From sequence record OP978391.1: DNA of 64,000 bases; one strand, written 5' to 3'. The notes below the pieces were generated by a model, which did no database searches, had not been told where the DNA came from, and was given only the letters and a program-made list of their open reading frames with translations. Within the stretch, counting starts at the first letter, position 1. Each line of letters opens with the position of its first letter. The translations under genes were made by a program, and so were the position numbers. The DNA is from Escherichia phage HP3.2. Shown here one piece after another: positions 19,341-61,600 of the stretch.

Positions 19341-19811
19341 TTAATCATGTGTCCACACCCCATCGGTATTTGACCAAAGTCGCTGATTATCTGATCCTCG
19401 CCACAGCTTTTTGGTCGGAAGATTTTTCTCATACTTCCCATCAATAATAACATCAACATATTTAAGCATTTCTAGTTGTTTAATATCTTCAAACTTATAT
19501 CCTGTCCACAACCAAATGTCTTTCTCAGGAAATCTTGCTTTAACCCAAGAAACTAAATTTGAAATCTCTTCTCGGTTCTGTGGATAAAGTGGGTCACCAC
19601 CGGTTAAGGTAAGGCCTTGGATATACGATTTGCTTAAATGGGACGCAAGTTCTTTAACGGTATTCATAGTGAATAACTGTCCGTTACGAGCATTCCAAGT
19701 ACTACGATTATAACAACCTTCGCATTTATGCAAACATCCAGTGACGAAGAGAACGACCCTACATCCAGGGCCGTTAACGAAATCGCATGGATAAATTCTA
19801 TCATAATTCAT
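19341..19811 (-). CDS. nrdG: Anaerobic ribonucleotide reductase activase NrdG (radical SAM)
   Basis: Start placed at MNYDRIYPCDF (156 aa); radical-SAM cysteine cluster CLHKCEGC. Confidence 0.85.
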   Translation of the reverse strand: MNYDRIYPCDFVNGPGCRVVLFVTGCLHKCEGCYNRSTWNARNGQLFTMNTVKELASHLSKSYIQGLTLTGGDPLYPQNREEISNLVSWVKARFPEKDIWLWTGYKFEDIKQLEMLKYVDVIIDGKYEKNLPTKKLWRGSDNQRLWSNTDGVWTHD

Positions 19812-20433
19812 CTTTATATTTCCAAGTATATCCCTTATGAATAGATTGAATTCCTTTGCAACATTTATAAACAGCAGAATGAAAAAATCCTGCATTTCTT
19901 ATTTCAGTTGCTCCAGTTAGTTCTATTGTATTTCCGTCTGGTGAATAGCCAATAACCGTTTTGGTGTTAAAGCGATTTCTAGAACTATTTTTGATATGCT
20001 CTTTATGACTAGTAGACAAAGTTCTTCCTGTTAGCCCATCAGATATCCTTTTTCCAAAATCATCAGGAAGAGTTACTTTAGACCTAGCTATGCTCATTAG
20101 CTTCTTAGTTTTATCGCTTCTTTTTGCGCCACGCTGATTTTCAAATTTCTTAGCTTTTGCATACGCGTATTGTGAAGAAGTAACTTTTCTATGCTTACTA
20201 TTACTCATTATCCAATATGCATCATACATCTTTCCACCATATATTTTAGCCAATAAATGGTGAGCAGTATAGTGGGCCTTATAAGTTAAAAATACTAAGT
20301 TGTCTAAATCATCTGAACCACCCATACTTCTTGGAATTATATGATGAAGTTCATACCCGGCTTTAGTTTGACGGGGCTTAGATGGGTGTTCAGCAGAATT
20401 AACTAGATTTGAATAGATTCTGTCATAATTCAT
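19801..20433 (-). CDS. HNH homing-endonuclease-like protein (Mob family)
   Basis: HNH motif HHIIPRSMGGSDDLDNLVFLTYKAHYTAHH; free-standing between nrdD and nrdG; first 7 codons duplicate those of nrdG. Confidence 0.75.
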   Translation of the reverse strand: MNYDRIYSNLVNSAEHPSKPRQTKAGYELHHIIPRSMGGSDDLDNLVFLTYKAHYTAHHLLAKIYGGKMYDAYWIMSNSKHRKVTSSQYAYAKAKKFENQRGAKRSDKTKKLMSIARSKVTLPDDFGKRISDGLTGRTLSTSHKEHIKNSSRNRFNTKTVIGYSPDGNTIELTGATEIRNAGFFHSAVYKCCKGIQSIHKGYTWKYKDEL

Positions 20434-22247
20434 TGGTGTTTAACCCTATGCATGATTTCTTTATTTTTACCGAGATTAAATCCGCGTTCGTTCGGGTTTC
20501 CCAAATAACCGCATGTTCTTCTTATTGTGTTCATCTTTTTAGGATCAGTTTCTCCACAAATAGAACAAACAAACCCGTTTTCAGTAGGAGTCATTTCATG
20601 GGTACTTCCACACGTAAAACATTTATCTACTGGCATATTAACACCAAAATAATCTAAATGTTGTGCAGCATAATCCCATACAGCCTCAAGACCTTTTAAG
20701 TTATTTTTCATATCAGGAAGTTCAACATAAGAAATGTGACCACCTGTTGCAATGAAATGATACGGGGCTTCGCGAGAAATCTTTTCAAACGGAGTAATAT
20801 TTTCTTCTACTGAAACATGGAAACTGTTAGTGTACCAGCCTTTATCAGTAACATCCTTTACACTTCCATATTTTTCTGTATCAAGTTTACAGAAGCGATA
20901 GCAAAGGTTTTCAGCAGGAGTAGAATACAAGCTAAAAGCAAACCCAGTTCTTTCAGTCCACTGTTTAAGACGAGCATTCATTTTAGTTAAAATTTCCTGT
21001 CCAATATCACGACCGACAAGAATATTCAATTCGTGAATACCAATGTATCCTAAAGACACTGAACTTCTACCATTTTTAAATAACTCAATTATATCGTCAT
21101 CAGGTTTAAGACGAACCCCGAATGCACCTTCTTGGTAAAGAATAGGAGCAACAGTCGCTTTAACTCCTTTTAAGGAACTAATTCTACACATCAAAGCTTC
21201 AAAACATAAATCCATTCGCTCATTGAATAATTTAACAAATTTCTGTTCATTGAACTGTGTTCCAATATAAGAATCCAACGCAATACGAGGAAGATTCAGT
21301 GTTACAACACCAAGATTATTACGTCCATCAAGAATTTCATTACCAGTCGAATCTTTCCATACGCTCAAGAAACTACGGCAACCCATTGGAGAAACAGGAA
21401 CAGATGAACCAGTGATAGCTTTATTGTTCTTAGCTGAAATAATATCAGGATACATCCTTTTGCTTGCACACTCTAGAGCAAGCTGCTTAATATCATAGTT
21501 CGGATCGTCTTTATAAAGATTAACACCTTCTTCAACAAACATAACAAGCTTAGGGAAAATAGGAGTTATCCCATCACGACCAAGACCTTTAATACGATTT
21601 TTCAGAATTGCTTTCTGAATCATTCGTTCAGTCCAGTCAGTTCCCGTACCAAATGTAATTGTTACAAAAGGTGTTTGTCCGTTTGAACTAAAGAGAGTAT
21701 TTACTTCATATTCATAAGCTTGGAATGCATCGTATACGTCTTTTTCTGTTTTAGATTGAGCATAATTCAACGCATCAGCGATTTGCCATTTTTCTGCATC
21801 CTCAATATGTTTTGCATATGTGCGTTTAACATAAGGAGAAAGTACTTTATCTACATTCGCAAAAGTCGTTCCGCCATATTGATGGGAAGCAACCTGTGCA
21901 GTAATTTGTGCCATAATTGCAGTAGCAACACCGATTGATTTAGGAGTTTCAATCTGCGCATTACCAAGCTTAAATCCGTTCTCAAGCATTCCTTTTAAAT
22001 CTACTAAACAACAATTAGTAAATGGAAGAGCAGGGGAATAATCAATATCATGGAAATGAATAATTCCGCTTTCATGCGCTTTCATAATAAAAGACGGGAC
22101 CATATTTTTGGCAATGTGTTTAGACACAATACCAGCCATAAGGTCCCGTTGAGTTGGAAAAACACGAGAATCTTTATTAGCATTCTCGTTCAAAAGGTCT
22201 TTATTAGTTTTATGAATCAATCCTTCAATTTCTTTTTCAATTGTCAT
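20430..22247 (-). CDS. nrdD: Anaerobic ribonucleoside-triphosphate reductase NrdD (605 aa, uninterrupted)
   Basis: 605 aa; C-terminal Cys cluster CFTCGS...CSICG and glycyl-radical region; single continuous ORF. Confidence 0.9.
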   Translation of the reverse strand: MTIEKEIEGLIHKTNKDLLNENANKDSRVFPTQRDLMAGIVSKHIAKNMVPSFIMKAHESGIIHFHDIDYSPALPFTNCCLVDLKGMLENGFKLGNAQIETPKSIGVATAIMAQITAQVASHQYGGTTFANVDKVLSPYVKRTYAKHIEDAEKWQIADALNYAQSKTEKDVYDAFQAYEYEVNTLFSSNGQTPFVTITFGTGTDWTERMIQKAILKNRIKGLGRDGITPIFPKLVMFVEEGVNLYKDDPNYDIKQLALECASKRMYPDIISAKNNKAITGSSVPVSPMGCRSFLSVWKDSTGNEILDGRNNLGVVTLNLPRIALDSYIGTQFNEQKFVKLFNERMDLCFEALMCRISSLKGVKATVAPILYQEGAFGVRLKPDDDIIELFKNGRSSVSLGYIGIHELNILVGRDIGQEILTKMNARLKQWTERTGFAFSLYSTPAENLCYRFCKLDTEKYGSVKDVTDKGWYTNSFHVSVEENITPFEKISREAPYHFIATGGHISYVELPDMKNNLKGLEAVWDYAAQHLDYFGVNMPVDKCFTCGSTHEMTPTENGFVCSICGETDPKKMNTIRRTCGYLGNPNERGFNLGKNKEIMHRVKHQ

Positions 22248-29690: not shown

Positions 29691-29980
29691 TTTCCACTGA
29701 ACCATGCGCTTACCGCTTTCTTAGTCTCAGGAGCAGTGTTATCCATAAACCATTCAAAGGCAGCCTTTTTATGATTCTGGAGGGCTTCTCGGGCTTTAAT
29801 CTGCTCACGGTCTATTAACACTAACATATGAGCCTTTCTTGTCACCAAGGGCTTCTTATGATTCTTGGAGTATTCCCAGTCATTTGTCCAACGCATTGTC
29901 GTTGCGAACTGATGAACCGCGTCTTTAATTTTAGTTTCGTAAATTTCACGAGCCTTTGAGTATAACATCACTACCTCCAT
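29666..29980 (-). CDS. Hypothetical protein (104 aa)
   Basis: ORF; start may be an internal Met. Confidence 0.45.
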   Translation of the reverse strand: MEVVMLYSKAREIYETKIKDAVHQFATTMRWTNDWEYSKNHKKPLVTRKAHMLVLIDREQIKAREALQNHKKAAFEWFMDNTAPETKKAVSAWFSGKNCERSFF

Positions 29981-31153: not shown

Positions 31154-32167
31154 TCATTTATAATAACTTCGGTGGTTTTCAAGATAAACCCTCTCAAGGA
31201 AGTCATCCCAAAAACCCATGTCTACTTTTTGCTGCATACCGTTCTTAGAAGCTTCAGTAGATGCTGCTTCTACTTGATCGACCACATCTTCCAAAAACTC
31301 TTGAACCGTTTTAAATGGATGTTTACCCAACTTCACGTCGAGAATAAATGGAGCATCTTGGAGTGGATAAACCAAGTCACCAGTTTTGTAAATTTCCAAT
31401 AGTTGGAGTCCACCACGGCAAGCATGACTCATAGCTTTCCAGTCAATACCTTCATTGGCTTCGGCCTTACGAGCACGTTCACCGTATTCAGCATCTAATT
31501 TGTTCAGTGACTGCTTAAGCTCAATAAGAGAAAGCGTTGTCTGATATTTACGACCCAACACTGTGTAGAACGTCTGTGGGCCTGTTTTCTCATGATTATG
31601 GAACACCCATTCACAGAATTCGTTTTCTGGAAGACGATGCTTAATATCTTCAACTTTAGTACGACGCTGCTTAATAGAACCATCTTCTTGGTAATCAACC
31701 CATTGCTCAGGGATTTGATTAACTACTTTCAATACATCACGTAATGCAGCCAAACGAGAACCCTTAACGCCGTATTTAGAAGCTTGCTTACGGACATATC
31801 CTAAATAGGATTTCATGTTAGTCGTATAAAAACGAGAACGGTTGTCTTGAATAAACTTCCACACATCAGGCAAATCAGATTTAACCACTAGTTCAGGTGG
31901 AGTGTGAAGCATATCTAACGCTACAGTTTCACCATCTGCTGCTAATTTAAAGAAATATTTAAGACTGTATAGTTCATGGTCAATATCATCTTTAGTGTTT
32001 TTAGATGATGTGTTGTTAGTGTTTTTACTCATGTGCTCTTTAACATTTCCGATAAGAATATCACGAGCAGGAGGAACAAAGATTTCTTTAAAATCTACAT
32101 CAGATTCTGGGGTAGAAGTTCCATAAAGATGACTACCAAAATAGCTTTTCATTACTGTTTTCATCAT
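31154..32167 (-). CDS. Predicted nucleotidyltransferase (minimal NTase / Pol-beta-like N-terminal domain), 337 aa
   Basis: N-terminal signature FGSHLYGTSTPESDVDF fits G[SG]x9-13[DE]h[DE]h; ca. 230-aa C-terminal region unassigned. Confidence 0.6.
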   Translation of the reverse strand: MMKTVMKSYFGSHLYGTSTPESDVDFKEIFVPPARDILIGNVKEHMSKNTNNTSSKNTKDDIDHELYSLKYFFKLAADGETVALDMLHTPPELVVKSDLPDVWKFIQDNRSRFYTTNMKSYLGYVRKQASKYGVKGSRLAALRDVLKVVNQIPEQWVDYQEDGSIKQRRTKVEDIKHRLPENEFCEWVFHNHEKTGPQTFYTVLGRKYQTTLSLIELKQSLNKLDAEYGERARKAEANEGIDWKAMSHACRGGLQLLEIYKTGDLVYPLQDAPFILDVKLGKHPFKTVQEFLEDVVDQVEAASTEASKNGMQQKVDMGFWDDFLERVYLENHRSYYK

Positions 32168-38898: not shown

Positions 38899-39177
38899 TT
38901 ATTCTTTAAATCTAATCAATTTATTCATAGACTTTGAAACTTCGGCACGAACCTCATGTAGATTTTTGAGCTGTTCAAGACGCTGCGTATAGTAAGCAAT
39001 TTCATCTTCTTCGAGACAGTCCTGTGAATCTTCTTTAAGATACCGTGCATAGTCCTGGAAAGCGTTACGGACTACTTCCTGGAAGTCATCAAGACTTTGA
39101 ATTTTCTTAGGAGCAGCAGACACACGACGAGGGGCAGTATAATACTCATAACCAAACCCTGCGCTTAATTGAGCCAT
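38899..39177 (-). CDS. Hypothetical protein (ca. 92 aa)
   Basis: Start taken at [13 protein letters not shown]. Confidence 0.5.
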
Positions 39178-39443
39178 TAGTATTTTTCCTCTGGTTGGAA
39201 CACAGCACGACAAGCCCACATACTGGCTTCTTTGAGTTTCGTTTTAGCAATAGCTAACTGATCGAGGCTTTCAGCATAATTCTTCGCGAGTTCAAAGTCT
39301 TCGCAATTATCTAGTGCTTCCCAGAATTCATCATATAAAGCATCAAAGATAAGTCCTAAACGAACTTCAGCGTCTTTAATAGCATTTACTTTACCGATTT
39401 TTTCGTCGGTATGTGGCTTATAACCTTTAATATCTTCAATCAT
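39177..39443 (-). CDS. Hypothetical protein (ca. 88 aa), at the vs.4 position
   Basis: Start taken at [11 protein letters not shown]; helical, acidic; positional only. Confidence 0.45.
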
Positions 39444-39657
39444 ATTTGACTTCCTCACCAGTACATAAATCGTATTCAACTAAACGAATAGGTTCATGAA
39501 TGCCATATCCCTGAACAGAAATTTCTGTCGTAGGATAAATTCCACTAATATCACCCATATTCCACGCTTCATTAAATTGCTGTTCGCCTGAATTACTAAA
39601 CCATTCTGCGAAAGCATTTAACACATCTTTAGAACCTTCAATAATTATCTTTGCCAT
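39436..39657 (-). CDS. Hypothetical protein (73 aa)
   Basis: Small ORF. Confidence 0.45.
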   Translation of the reverse strand: MAKIIIEGSKDVLNAFAEWFSNSGEQQFNEAWNMGDISGIYPTTEISVQGYGIHEPIRLVEYDLCTGEEVKYD

Positions 39658-40019
39658 TACAAGCTCTCAGTAAAGGTACGAGCGATAACGTCGCGCTGCT
39701 GTTCCGGAGTCAGAGAGTTAAAGCGAACTGCATAACCGGATACACGGATGGTCAGCTGCGGATATTTTTCCGGATGCTTAACTGCATCTTCCAGAGTTTC
39801 ACGACGCAGAACGTTAACGTTCAGGTGTTGACCACCTTCAATTTTAACTGTAGGCTGTGGCTCAATTTCAATTTCACGGGCATGCAAACCGTAGAAAATT
39901 TCTGGGTCTACAAAAGAGTCCTCTTTAAAGGTTTTAGAAACAATAATTCGTGCTTGAATACCATCTTCAAAATAAATAGTACCTTTATGCGTGCCTTCAA
40001 GAATTTGATATGCTTTCAT
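39657..40019 (-). CDS. GrcA/YfiD-like autonomous glycyl-radical cofactor protein (120 aa)
   Basis: C-terminus ...[33 protein letters not shown] carries the glycyl-radical motif RVSGY; 3' half visibly GC-richer than flanking phage DNA. Confidence 0.75.
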
Positions 40020-40025
40020 ATAACC

Positions 40026-40406
40026 TCAATTAGAAAATAAATTTATCCAAGACTGTTCTTTAATTAAAAATGGCTCAGAATCATATGCCATTAAACTTTG
40101 GGTGATTAGTCCTTTAAAAGGTCCATCAATAAATTCCATGGTAAAATATGGAATTTTATTCATTAATCTTGCATTAGGAGCAGTACACAAAACTCTGCAT
40201 CCTTTGAATACACCTTTTTGTAATTTGTATTGCTTAGGATAAAATTCGCTCAAGACGTTGTTATTTGCCAAAATTTCAAAATGATTCACCAATTTATTTT
40301 TAATAGTTTTTGGCGAAAAATAAAGATATTCGAAAAGCTGAGTGTCTGTCATCATTGCATTCCGATTACGAAAAACTGTGGACGAGTAATACCACCAATG
40401 CAACAT
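40026..40406 (-). CDS. Hypothetical protein (start uncertain, likely internal Met near 40355)
   Basis: ORF overlapping the 3' end of the upstream P-loop gene in another frame. Confidence 0.4.
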   Translation of the reverse strand: MLHWWYYSSTVFRNRNAMMTDTQLFEYLYFSPKTIKNKLVNHFEILANNNVLSEFYPKQYKLQKGVFKGCRVLCTAPNARLMNKIPYFTMEFIDGPFKGLITQSLMAYDSEPFLIKEQSWINLFSN

Positions 40407-40939
40407 TTAATATTACAGCAGCAGTGTACAGTGTCAATATGGACACTATAAATCTTATCCATATCAGGAGATTTGACAGGCTCATCAATTATATACAAAA
40501 TTCGCGAAAGCGATAAACCTCTGAACTTGCTTCCTTTATTACCAATAAAACTGCGCACAGAATCAGTAAATAAACGAAAACGTATATCATCATTAGAATA
40601 ACGCGAAAATTCCTTTTTAATATTATCTGCGGAAATTTTAGCGTAAGCTGAAGTATTAGAAAGAACAATAACTGTTCCACCGTCATACAACCAATTAGCG
40701 GCAAAATTAGTTACTGCAGTTGATTTACCAGATTGACGCCCACCATCTAGTCGAAGTGTACAATACTGTTTAAGTAAGTCTTCAAATGGCGGGATATATT
40801 CGTTTTTACAAATTTCTTCTACTCTAGCATCAGAATGGTGTGTAAAAGCATTCATCAGGGATAGATAAGGACCAGTTAAAAATGTTCTCATTTTGTTCTC
40901 TCTAGGTTTGGGCCATTCCATGGCGCATGAATTGTCCAT
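40352..40939 (-). CDS. P-loop NTPase-like protein (start uncertain, possibly MRTFLTG near 40891)
   Basis: Walker A DGGRQSGKST, Walker B-like RILYIIDEP; odd Cys-rich C-terminal tail HCCCNIKCC. Confidence 0.45.
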   Translation of the reverse strand: MDNSCAMEWPKPRENKMRTFLTGPYLSLMNAFTHHSDARVEEICKNEYIPPFEDLLKQYCTLRLDGGRQSGKSTAVTNFAANWLYDGGTVIVLSNTSAYAKISADNIKKEFSRYSNDDIRFRLFTDSVRSFIGNKGSKFRGLSLSRILYIIDEPVKSPDMDKIYSVHIDTVHCCCNIKCCIGGITRPQFFVIGMQ

Positions 40940-41036
40940 TTCTGTATTTACCCATTACCGCACTTGGGCTCGACCTTATTACAGGTTGGCGGGAATCCCT
41001 CACAGAATCATGAGGTCCAGGTTATTCCCATGTTAT

Positions 41037-41453
41037 TTAAATGTAAATATTTTTGCCGTAATACTTATACCAGTGTGGCTTCATTAAAATTTTTTCATCG
41101 AGTCGTTGTTGACTCAACTTAATAGCTGATTTGCATGGATTATAATCATTTTTCCATTCTACTGGAATATCGCTGATGTCAGGAACTTCAGTATCTTTTA
41201 TACTGAACCCGCGTTTTAAGCATTCCGTTATAATGTCCGATTGACGCTTTCGCAAAAATTCTAACTTATCGTAAAAGAAAGTAACATGACCAGAACCTAA
41301 AATAAATTTAGAAGATATTTTAAAATCTTTAACGCGCTTACCGTTTGCCACATGCTTACGAACTATACCAAAAACACGCGGCAATTCACGGTATTCTGCG
41401 ATTAAATGTTGATCAGCAAGTTCAGATACTAAAGTCAAATTAATACGAGTCAT
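41037..41453 (-). CDS. denV: Endonuclease V (pyrimidine-dimer DNA glycosylase), 138 aa
   Basis: 138 aa; N-terminus [29 protein letters not shown] agrees with T4 DenV. Confidence 0.85.
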
Positions 41454-41455
41454 TT

Positions 41456-41512
41456 TATCCCTCCAAGTAACTGTGAATATACTATCACAATTCTAGGAGA
41501 AAGTAAACAACT
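41456..41512 (-). promoter_or_regulatory. T4-type early promoter for denV
   Basis: GTTTAC (plus 41503-41508) -17 nt- aTAGTAT in the 59-bp e-denV gap. Confidence 0.55.
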
Positions 41513-42043
<531 letters not shown>

Positions 42044-47694: not shown

Positions 47695-47769
47695 TGGCGG
47701 ACGTGATAGGATTCGAACCTATAACCAATCGCTTAACAGGCGATCGCTCTGCCATTGAGCTACACATCC
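47695..47769 (-). tRNA. tRNA-Asn (anticodon GUU)
   Basis: Acceptor GGAUGUG/CACGUCC, anticodon loop CUGUUAA, T-loop UUCGAAU, CCA. Confidence 0.75.
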
Positions 47770-47773
47770 AAAT

Positions 47774-47860
47774 TGGTGGGGAGTGGTGGAGTCGAACCAC
47801 CCGAGTCGCAATGACAATGAATTTACAGTCCACACCGCTACCTCTACGGGATAACTCCCC
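47774..47860 (-). tRNA. tRNA-Tyr (anticodon GUA), long variable arm
   Basis: Acceptor GGGGAGU/ACUCCCC, anticodon loop CUGUAAA, variable arm GUC-AUUGC-GAC, T-loop UUCGACU, CCA. Confidence 0.75.
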
Positions 47861-47869
47861 AAATTAATT

Positions 47870-58649: not shown

Positions 58650-61600
58650 CAGTAAAAGCACCTTCAGTCACTAGTCTCAGAATTTCCAAGTTATCCGCAA
58701 ATCAGATGCAAGTACGCTGGGATGACGTTGGTGCTAATTTCTACTATTTTGTAGAAATCGCTGAGACAAAAACAGACTCGGGGGAAAATCTCCCGAGTGA
58801 TCAATATCGTTGGATTAATTTAGGATATACAGCAAACAATAGTTTCTTTTTTGATGATGCTGATCCACTAACATCATACATCATTAGAGTAGCTACAGCT
58901 GCACAAGATTTTGAGCAATCTGATTGGGTTTATACGGAAGAGTTTGAAACTTTTGCTACGAATGCTTACACATTTCAAAACATGATTGAAATGCAATTAG
59001 CCAATAAATTCATTCAGGAAAAGTTTACTCTTAACAATTCTAATTATGTCAATTTTAATAATGACACTATAATGGCTGCATTGATGAATGAATCATTTCA
59101 ATTCAGCCCATCGTATGTTGATGTTTCATCAATAAGTAATTTTATTATTGGTGAAAATGAGTATCATGAAATACAAGGTTCTATTCAGCAAGTATGTAAG
59201 GATATTAACCGAGTTTATTTGATGGAATCAGAAGGAATTCTATATCTTTTTGAGCGCTATCAACCTGTAGTTAAAGTATCCAATGATAAAGGACAAACCT
59301 GGAAAGCCGTAAAGCTCTTCAATGACCGTGTAGGATATCCTTTATCTAAGACAGTATATTACCAATCTGCGAACACAACATACGTTCTAGGATACGACAA
59401 GATTTTCTATGGCCGTAAATCGACTGACGTTAGATGGTCAGCAGATGATGTCAGATTCAGTTCGCAGGATATAACATTTGCTAAACTTGGCGACCAGTTA
59501 CATTTAGGATTTGATGTAGAAATCTTTGGTACTTATGCGACTTTACCAGCGAATGTATATCGTATAGCTGAAGCCATTACTTGTACGGATGATTATATCT
59601 ATGTTGTTGCCAGAGATAAAGTTAGATATATAAAAACGAGCAATGCACCTATAGATTCTGATCCATTATCTCCAACATATTCAGAAAGGCTATTTGAACC
59701 TGATACAATGACTATAACTGGAAATCCTAAAGCAGTATGCTATAAAATGGATTCTATTGGTGATAAAGTTTTTGCTCTTATTATCGGTGAAGTTGAAACA
59801 TTAAATGCTAATCCTAGAACGTCAAAAATAATTGATTCTGCTGATAAAGGAATATATGTTTTAAATCATGACACAAAAACGTGGAAAAGAGTTTTTGGCA
59901 ACACTGAAGAAGAAAGAAGACGTATTCAACCTGGGTATGCGAATATGTCAACTGATGGTAAATTAGTTTCTCTATCTTCGAGTAATTTTAAATTTTTAAA
60001 TGATAACGTTGTTAATGACCCTGAAACTGTAGCAAAATATCAGTTAATCGGTGCCGTTAAATATGAATTTCCTCGTGAATGGTTAGCTGATAAGCATTAT
60101 CATATGATGGCATTTATAGCAGATGAAAAGTCTGATTGGGAAACTTTTACGCCTCAGCCAATGAAATACTATGCAGAACCATTCTTTAACTGGTCTAAAA
60201 AGTCTAATACACGGTGCTGGATAAACAACTCTAATAGAGCTGTAGTAGTTTATGCTGATTTAAAATACACTAAAGTTATAGAAAATATTCCGGAAACATC
60301 ACCAGATAGATTAGTTCATGAATACTGGGATGATGGTGATTGTACGATAGTAATGCCAAATGTTAAATTCACGGGATTTAAAAAATATGCGTCTGGGATG
60401 CTTTTTTATAAATCTTCTGGTGAAATAATTTCTTATTATGATTTTAACTATCGTGTGAGAGATACAGTAGAAATTATTTGGAAGCCGACTGGAGTATTTT
60501 TAAAAGCATTTTTACAAAACCAAGAGCATGAGACTCCTTGGTCGCCAGAAGAAGAGCATGGATTAGCTGACCCTGATTTAAGACCATTAATTGGCACAAT
60601 GATGCCTGATTCTTATTTGTTGCAGGATTCGAATTTTGAGGCATTTTGTGAAGCATATATTCAATATCTTTCTGACGGATACGGAACTCAGTATAATAAT
60701 TTACGAAATTTAATTCGTAATCAGTATCCACGAGAAGAGCATGCGTGGGAATATTTGTGGTCAGAGATATATAAAAGAAACATTTATTTAAATGCTGACA
60801 AACGTGATGCTGTTGCAAGATTTTTTGAATCACGTAGTTATGATTTTTATTCTACTAAAGGAATTGAAGCATCATACAAATTTCTTTTTAAAGTTCTTTA
60901 TAATGAAGAAGTTGAAATTGAAATTGAATCTGGGGCTGGTACTGAATATGACATAATCGTTCAATCTGATTCTTTGACTGAAGATTTAGTAGGACAAACG
61001 ATTTATACAGCCACAGGAAGATGTAATGTTACTTATATAGAAAGAAGTTATTCTAATGGTAAATTGCAATGGACCGTAACTATTCATAATCTTTTGGGAA
61101 GATTAATTGCTGGTCAAGAAGTTAAAGCAGAAAGACTCCCTAGTTTTGAAGGCGAAATTATTCGTGGAGTTAAAGGAAAGGATTTGCTTCAAAACAATAT
61201 AGACTATATTAATAGAAGTAGATCATACTATGTAATGAAAATTAAATCCAATTTACCTTCTTCCCGCTGGAAATCTGACGTTATTCGTTTTGTTCATCCA
61301 GTAGGATTTGGATTTATAGCAATTACCCTTTTAACGATGTTTATTAATGTTGGTTTAACTCTTAAACATACAGAGACTATAATTAATAAATACAAAAACT
61401 ATAAATGGGATTCTGGATTGCCTACTGAATATGCTGATAGAGTAGCTAAATTAACTCCAACCGGTGAAATTGAGTATGATTCAGTAACAGGCGAAGCAAT
61501 TTATGAGCCTGGCCCAATGGCTGGTGTAGAATATCCTCTTCCTGATGACTATAATGCTGAAAATAATAATTCAATATTTCAAGGTCAATTGCCGTCTGAA

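Follow-up and report, generated by a model that had tools for sequence, protein, structure and literature searches.

The glycyl-radical domain of the T4-type gene vs.6 in Escherichia phage HP3.2 carries a tract identical to host grcA, probably through recurrent gene conversion

Escherichia phage HP3.2 (sequence record OP978391.1) carries, in the 64,000-nt stretch of DNA that we analyzed in full (hereafter the window), a homolog of the T4 gene vs.6, which encodes a small glycyl-radical protein related to the host cofactor GrcA (also called YfiD). The 3' part of this gene contains 175 consecutive nucleotides that are identical to grcA of Escherichia coli and that cover the structured radical domain, and the 5' half is AT-rich and of phage lineage. 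Taken together, the comparisons reported here make it very likely that the gene is a T4-type spare part for pyruvate formate-lyase (PFL) and that its radical domain has been converted recurrently by host grcA.

The coordinates of the gene and of its segments are given in Table 1. With its own Shine-Dalgarno sequence, start and stop, the open reading frame (ORF) encodes a small stand-alone protein; in the sequence TAATG, its stop codon shares bases with the start codon of the gene that follows. Positions 39000-41000 of the window are 100% identical to Escherichia phage HP3 (a T4-like Tequatrovirus, NC_041919). The product is 100% identical to HP3 gp129, annotated in GenBank as "autonomous glycyl radical cofactor GrcA", and we refer to the gene and its product as those of HP3 below. 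The gene lies in a run of early genes comprising nudE, e, denV, vs.8, vs.7, vs.6, vs.5, vs.4 (Acb2), vs.3 and regB. T4 vs.6 (NC_000866, 63557-63919) encodes a protein identical at 119 of 120 residues and is flanked by genes in the same order. The HP3 ORF is the ortholog of T4 vs.6 (protein Y06I), the phage autonomous glycyl-radical "spare part", and both the gene and its function were already known. A first-pass annotation of this DNA, made from the sequence alone, had suspected that a YfiD-like gene might already be annotated in T4 at this position, which is the case.

The Pfam domain Gly_radical covers residues 61-101 (E 2.8e-18; 66.8 bits against a cut-off of 22.2). The end of the product reads as the first-pass annotation had quoted it, and the motif RVSGY, which contains the radical glycine, is intact at residues 92-96. 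The best match among solved structures is the nuclear magnetic resonance (NMR) structure of E. coli YfiD/GrcA (6OWR, E 8.6e-42). Residues 58-120 also align with PFL residues 697-759, including the G734 motif RVSGY (E 5e-26).

Table 1. Coordinates in the window of vs.6, its ribosome-binding sequence and its segments
Feature	Position	Strand	Description
vs.6 / phage grcA coding sequence	39657..40019	-	120-aa ORF, ATG start
Shine-Dalgarno sequence GAGG	40024..40027	-	overlaps the stop codon of the upstream gene vs.7; read from the sequence
5' half	39842..40019	-	AT-rich, phage-lineage, diverged homolog of the disordered GrcA N-half (hhalign)
Putative host-derived conversion tract	39667..39841	-	175 nt, 100% identical to E. 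coli grcA codons ~67-124
3' end	39657..39666	-	third base of the Glu codon, last two sense codons and stop; two synonymous differences from E. coli

We compared the gene with 5,426 complete E. coli genomes using blastn. Nucleotides 179-363 of the gene (window 39841..39657) matched the 3' end of grcA in all of these genomes, with identities of 95-99% (best 98.9%). In a pairwise alignment that included the flanks, a run of 175 identical bases gives way to two synonymous differences, both within the last three codons. Beyond the stop codon and upstream of TTGAAGGTGG, similarity to E. coli grcA ends abruptly. The tract encodes the structured glycyl-radical domain including RVSGY (about GrcA residues 67-124), and it shows no synonymous difference from E. 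coli over 44 synonymous sites. The first-pass annotation had described the 3' half as near-identical, recently acquired host grcA DNA, and these alignments bear it out.

Base composition and codon usage also change within the gene. The GC content of the tract is 0.49 and its GC content at third codon positions (GC3) is 0.41, compared with 0.35 and 0.22 in the 5' half and a GC content of 0.35 for the whole window. Among equal-sized windows of phage ORFs, only 0.05% reach the value of the tract for GC and 0.8% for GC3. The codons of the tract are host-like: all five leucines are encoded by CTG (7% in phage ORFs), all three prolines by CCG and all three asparagines by AAC. A GC-rich half had been claimed at about 39657-39860 and a check of composition and codon usage proposed; we place the GC-rich half at 39657-39841, with the break inside the gene and host codon usage in the tract.

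The sequence identities point to grcA itself, and not to a gene of the PFL family, as the donor of the tract, given that tdcE is ~76% identical to the gene at the nucleotide level and grcA 100%. A megablast search of the remainder of the 64-kb window against the E. coli genomes gave no second chromosomal match.

Three other ORF windows have a GC3 as high as that of the tract (29711-29980 and 31436-31630 on the minus strand, 59294-59470 on the plus strand). They have no megablast match to the E. coli genomes and thus do not add to the sequence shared with the host. The only other matches of the window are to tRNA genes on ~100-kb E. coli plasmids in 212 genomes, to which a section of the phage tRNA cluster (~47709-47865; Tyr/Thr/Asn) is 82-88% identical; these plasmids are probably phage-plasmids.

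The 5' half and grcA cannot be aligned as DNA and lack nucleotide similarity. To compare the N-terminal halves at the profile level, ten phage sequences were aligned with 66 bacterial GrcA sequences using hhalign. The alignment spans 58 columns with a probability of 96.4%, an E value of 1e-9 and 28% identity, and a column-reversed control gave E 0.17. The first-pass annotation had called this half phage-like, which holds in so far as it is AT-rich and of phage lineage; it is, however, a homolog of the GrcA N-half and not an unrelated phage N-terminus.

Colinear, full-length vs.6 genes are found in Karam-, Slopek-, Krisch- and Jiaodavirus and in T5-like, jumbo and Aeromonas phages, and in other T4-like genera 120-aa orthologs with C-halves that are not host-like occupy the same position. 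The gene occurs in roughly 1,500 phage records. In most vs.6 genes of other genera the protein sequence of the C-domain is nearly the same (proportion of nonsynonymous differences, pN, 0-0.05), and synonymous sites are saturated with respect to E. coli (proportion of synonymous differences, pS, ~0.6); this applies to the orthologs of Karam-, Slopek- and Krischvirus and to the homologs of T5-like phages. We take such genes to represent the "old" state of the C-half.

At the other end of the tract, the last codons are GAG AGC TTG TAA in HP3 and GAA AGC CTG TAA in E. coli. The last three sense codons are GAA AGT TTG in T4 and GAG AGT CTA in Mosigvirus, the latter being the same as in Slopekvirus. 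Because these states are patchy from phage to phage, the right-hand junction cannot be placed exactly; it lies in or beside 39657..39666, at the extreme 3' end, where the similarity between phage and host runs out. Both junctions flank the block that is conserved between phage and host, as homology-dependent replacement predicts.

The first-pass annotation had explained the gene differently, as host grcA whose 3' end was captured by recombination and joined to a phage N-terminus. Read as illegitimate recombination that set this 3' fragment in frame behind an unrelated phage ORF, the model yields a new chimeric protein. The sharp break in composition and identity at 39841/39842, together with the absence of nucleotide similarity to grcA in the 5' half, is what such a fusion would leave behind. 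However, homology to the GrcA N-half extends along the entire N-half of the phage protein, colinear 120-aa orthologs with C-halves unlike the host occur at the same position in other T4-like genera, the identity breaks in the last three codons before the stop is reached, and genes with a Klebsiella donor (described below) share the same architecture. Because of the homology of the N-half, the orthologs in the old state and the imperfect last codons, we favor conversion of a resident full-length phage grcA over capture and fusion, which we consider improbable. The starting state would have been an old, full-length, AT-rich phage homolog of grcA. The DNA of its conserved C-terminal domain would then have been replaced by chromosomal grcA of the host, through homologous (homeologous) recombination or gene conversion. 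The bounds of the tract would be the bounds of the similarity between phage and host, with the boundary between N-half and domain on the left and the 3' end of the gene on the right.

The function of the protein can be approached through its relatives. T4 Y06I and YfiD receive a glycyl radical from the PFL activase and restore oxygen-cleaved PFL in vitro, according to PMC8683613, which cites Wagner et al. 2001 (PMID 11444864). In YfiD, residues 1-60 are disordered and residues 61-127 fold like PFL 693-759; the C-domain takes the place of the PFL segment that was lost, and the N-half, being disordered, aids binding to cleaved PFL and activation (PMC8683613). The C-domain of the HP3 protein is identical to host GrcA from residue 61 onward, and recognition by the host PFL activase (PflA) and a fit into host PFL are therefore expected as for GrcA. 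Host PflA would install the glycyl radical on the glycine of RVSGY, and the C-domain would dock into host PFL after oxygen has removed the PFL radical domain, restoring the conversion of pyruvate to acetyl-CoA and formate. The phage-specific N-half may tune binding. After a T4-type shut-off of host transcription, the phage would in this way supply the spare part itself. The benefit may be that fermentative acetyl-CoA and ATP, as well as formate, are kept flowing in a microaerobic gut with oxygen fluctuations.

The window also encodes NrdD (20430-22247, a contiguous 605-aa ORF) and an NrdG-like activase of the radical S-adenosylmethionine type (19341-19895). An ORF for an HNH endonuclease (19801-20433, minus strand) lies between nrdD and the gene for this activase. 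The first-pass annotation was right that both proteins are encoded by the same phage, and it had suggested that the glycyl-radical protein could rescue oxygen-damaged NrdD. A spare part for the phage's own oxygen-cleaved NrdD, activated by NrdG, would suit this gene content. It would also suit the arrangement in Aeromonas phage PX29 (locus L095, 1-960), where vs.6 overlaps the end of nrdG and nrdC and nrdH follow, a neighborhood link to anaerobic nucleotide reduction, and an early comparative paper had guessed at a role in nucleotide metabolism (PMC1524935). However, the best BLASTP alignment between the HP3 protein and the phage's own NrdD has an E value of 2.6 and lies away from the radical site, whereas PFL 697-759 was matched at E 5e-26. 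The identity of the C-domain with host GrcA is in keeping with PFL as the target, and T4 Y06I complements cleaved PFL together with the PFL activase (PMC8683613). We therefore rejected direct repair of NrdD as the primary function, as there is no significant similarity to the phage NrdD, and consider it unlikely that the spare part serves NrdD rather than host PFL. Because class III ribonucleotide reductase uses formate as its reductant, vs.6 is probably linked to the phage NrdD and NrdG only indirectly. Formate supplied by PFL would explain the gene linkage equally well.

We aligned seven Tequatrovirus and four Mosigvirus sequences with MAFFT and counted the fixed differences between the two genera. 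These differences number 79 at 289 positions in the 290 nt upstream of the gene, 11 at 177 in the 5' half, 0 at 173 in the tract and 60 at 286 in the 290 nt downstream, that is, 139 of 575 for both flanks together. The tract differs from the 5' half with p = 8e-4 and from the flanks with p = 2e-18 (Fisher's exact test). Within genera, diversity in the tract is 1.3% compared with 3.2-4.7% in the flanks for Tequatrovirus, and 2.2% compared with 1.9-2.5% for Mosigvirus. The tract is thus about as diverse within genera as the flanks, so slow evolution of the tract is not the cause of the missing fixed differences. Differences from E. coli in the tracts of both genera are mainly private single substitutions, and one Tequatrovirus of the alignment has a 6-nt indel. 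From the absence of fixed differences it follows that the tract entered or was reset after the split of Tequatrovirus and Mosigvirus, either by independent events in each genus or by spread from phage to phage.

A second donor is found in phages of Klebsiella. In Klebsiella Jiaodavirus (n = 4), grcA of the K. pneumoniae complex has a near-identical counterpart in the corresponding segment, GAAGGCGGTC...GCTCGTACC. For instance, the core tract of JD18 differs at 4 of 156 positions from the Klebsiella locus L179 and at 19 of 156 from E. coli, and grcA alleles of the Klebsiella complex differ among themselves at 2-5 positions. We speak of the K. pneumoniae complex because the alleles are named K. 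variicola or come from ENA metagenomes, with species names taken from cluster annotations. In the Jiaodavirus genes, phage-like sequence persists in the 5' half and in the last ~20 nt. The protein signature also follows the host: LEDAVKH is shared by E. coli and its phages, and LLDAVEH by Klebsiella and its Jiaoda- and Slopekvirus. Judged by its different donor, the Jiaodavirus case is clearly independent of the case with the E. coli donor. JD18 and PKO111 differ at 16 of 156 positions in the tract and at 5 of 177 in the 5' half (p 0.006). This greater divergence of the tract suggests more than one donor allele within the genus.

We therefore regard recurrent conversion as well supported, with more than one event, an E. 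coli donor in Tequatrovirus and Mosigvirus and a K. pneumoniae-complex donor in Jiaodavirus. Replacement is largely host-matched: E. coli grcA would have entered Tequatrovirus and Mosigvirus after their split, and K. pneumoniae-complex grcA would have entered Jiaodavirus. The conversions look like rare, discrete events and not like continuous homogenization.

A single ancient acquisition of the whole gene, with a 3' half kept identical to the host by extreme purifying or codon-usage selection and no later recombination, would be in line with the very strong conservation of the C-domain protein everywhere (pN 0-0.05). Under such selection, though, one would not expect a pS of ~0.6 in other phage genera with nearly the same C-domain protein, nor a tract that is as diverse as its flanks within genera and yet has 0 fixed differences between them, nor a Jiaodavirus tract that is more diverged than the 5' half. 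We consider this explanation very unlikely.

Some records stand apart from these comparisons. The vs.6 gene of RB55 (KM607002.1, 63523-63694) matches the E. coli tract over 172 and not 185 nt, and in that of an IMG/VR Jiaodavirus (L123, 601-959) a 1-nt gap shifts the frame of the 5' half. Both copies look damaged, which could reflect sequencing errors or pseudogenes. An IMG/VR sequence (L126, IMGVR_UViG_2706794630_000006, 445-897) was a candidate for a phage with a Yersinia-like grcA. It encodes a bacterial-type, full-length GrcA, and its DNA is 89% identical to Yersinia grcA over the full 384 nt. The sequence probably stems from a host or from the flank of a prophage and is not a phage vs.6, and it was left out of the comparison.

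Identity alone gives no direction, and the 3' half of grcA in E. coli (and Klebsiella) could in principle have come from phages. We compared the two halves of E. coli grcA with those of other bacteria. The pS values for tract and 5' half are 0.045 and 0.044 against Escherichia sp., 0.32 and 0.41 against Citrobacter, 0.57 and 0.51 against Salmonella, and 0.49 and 0.50 against Klebsiella. Both halves of the bacterial gene are thus equally diverged, which fits vertical descent, and the halves are discordant only in the phage. In a neighbor-joining tree of the tract (computed with no bootstrap), the Tequatrovirus and Mosigvirus sequences branch within Escherichia, with 0-4 differences from E. coli over 171 positions and 13-17 from the next genus. 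It is the phage tracts that nest in host clades and not vice versa, and the codon usage of the tract is that of the host and not of the phage. The discordant halves of the phage gene, the nesting of the tract in Escherichia and the absence of differences at 44 synonymous sites therefore indicate transfer from host to phage, the only direction seen, and leave the reverse direction highly unlikely. An assembly artefact, with host reads merged into the phage assembly, has nothing in its favor beyond the identity itself and is almost certainly not the explanation: more than 600 independent phage records, including the 1980s Sanger entry of T4 (X04567), share the left junction and carry the tract at 95% identity or more, the gene has kept its reading frame, and the tracts of different phages have private substitutions.

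Although recurrent conversion of a PFL spare part accounts best for these data, several observations weigh against it. Tequatroviruses whose isolation host was Yersinia or Proteus still have the E. coli tract, and there is no host-like tract in a Krischvirus on E. coli, in an Enterobacter phage or in the T5-like phage HildyBeyeler on E. coli. PKO111, isolated on K. oxytoca, differs at 13-16 of 156 positions from the candidates in a donor panel without K. oxytoca grcA, and thus has no close donor there. The phage samples are small (7 Tequatrovirus, 4 Mosigvirus, 4 Jiaodavirus). Junctions can be resolved only to within a few nucleotides, and the left junction is at the same place (grcA nt ~200) in every lineage, so a single event spread by recombination between phages could account for it. 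As to function, we assign to the HP3 protein the role of its T4 ortholog, with which it agrees at all residues but one, and the selective benefit and the formate link to NrdD are ones that we only infer. Finally, the diverged N-half keeps the protein below the cut-off of the NCBIfam model for GrcA equivalogs (TIGR04365, spare_glycyl): it scores 153.3 bits against a cut-off of 170 and matches profile positions 25-126 only, whereas E. coli GrcA scores 233.9 bits. By this criterion it is not a bacterial-type GrcA equivalog; it belongs to the phage vs.6 branch (PHROG 1209, labelled "unknown function" there).

The cause of the host matching is a separate matter. Strictly virulent T4-like phages, including T4 with its hydroxymethylcytosine-containing DNA, may track their hosts adaptively, overwriting the vs.6 domain to match the PFL and activase of the local host (LEDAVKH versus LLDAVEH). 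We put this forward tentatively, as a possibility that we rate below even. The replacement may instead be a neutral by-product of high sequence conservation.

Among known systems, T4 Vs.6 (Y06I) is the closest to the HP3 gene. It shares the neighborhood of denV, vs.8, vs.7, vs.6, vs.5, vs.4, vs.3 and regB as well as the same E. coli-identical tract. The T4 tract, however, has one nonsynonymous difference from E. coli (R73H), whereas HP3 keeps Arg73, and the 5' halves of the two genes differ at four synonymous positions. In HP3, e (lysozyme) is also followed directly by denV (window 41037-42007), without the internal-protein genes ipIII and ipII that lie between the two in T4. E. coli GrcA (YfiD, 6OWR) resembles the HP3 protein in being a stand-alone protein of ~14 kDa, in having the same 60 C-terminal residues encoded by identical DNA, and in an N-half that is homologous at the profile level. 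Unlike GrcA, the HP3 protein has an N-half that is only ~28% identical and 7 residues shorter, and it is expressed from a phage early-gene cluster and not under host regulation. The glycyl-radical domain of E. coli PflB (and TdcE) aligns with HP3 residues 58-120 but, on the evidence given above, was not the donor of the tract.

The nearest documented analogue of the mosaic is cyanophage psbA/psbD, for which intragenic recombination between host and phage and GC patchiness within genes have been described (Sullivan et al. 2006, PMC1484495, and Zeidner et al. 2005 cited there). In both systems an auxiliary metabolic gene is resident in T4-like phages, is patchy in GC content and has exchanged segments between host and phage, in a discrete number of events with later spread from phage to phage. 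As in psbA, the segments of the gene are discordant, the exchanged segment falls in a host clade and has host composition, and there is more than one donor. The HP3 case differs in its enteric host, its virulent phage, the gene concerned and a donor identified at the species level with 100% identity. It differs also in that the tract coincides with one structural domain and that only the host-to-phage direction is seen. An earlier comparative paper reports of vs.6 no more than its conservation and its Gly_radical domain (PMC1524935). The searchable literature yielded no earlier account of the tract shared with the host or of its recurrence, although a mention in a T4 genome review or in the YfiD NMR paper is still possible.

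Other elements were noted around the gene. Two genes downstream of vs.6, the vs.4 homolog (39177-39479, minus strand) encodes an Acb2/Tad1 hairpin domain (an anti-CBASS/Thoeris sponge; Pfam E 2.1e-20). The intergenic region between denV and vs.8 contains a stretch with a GC content of ~0.50 (40940-41036) and a 40-nt core (~40950-40989; ...TTCCCGCCAACCTGTAATAAGGTCGAGCCCAAGTGCGG...), and copies of this core with 92-97% identity are present in Mosigvirus, in T4-likes of Klebsiella, in a Pseudomonas phage and in an Escherichia phage of 137 kb. An Rfam scan of 39000-41600 gave no match, either for this stretch or elsewhere in the scanned region. Promoter and terminator scans gave matches no better than those in shuffled sequences, and a "terminator-like" match at 39823-39837 lies on the plus strand, opposite to the gene.

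The contribution of this analysis is the evolutionary anatomy of a known gene: 175 bp of perfect host DNA lie exactly over the structured radical domain in a virulent phage. It also corrects two tempting readings of the gene, namely fusion to an unrelated phage N-terminus and direct repair of NrdD. If recurrent conversion by host grcA is the true history, vs.6 would provide a natural and quantifiable case of gene conversion from a host to virulent phages and a clean enteric counterpart of the cyanophage psbA mosaics. The tract may then mark which hosts T4-like phages have had in the recent past. T4 on E. coli would be a tractable system in which to measure the rate at which phage genes are converted by degraded host DNA, and one in which it could be tested whether matching the host PFL and its activase matters for infection at low oxygen.

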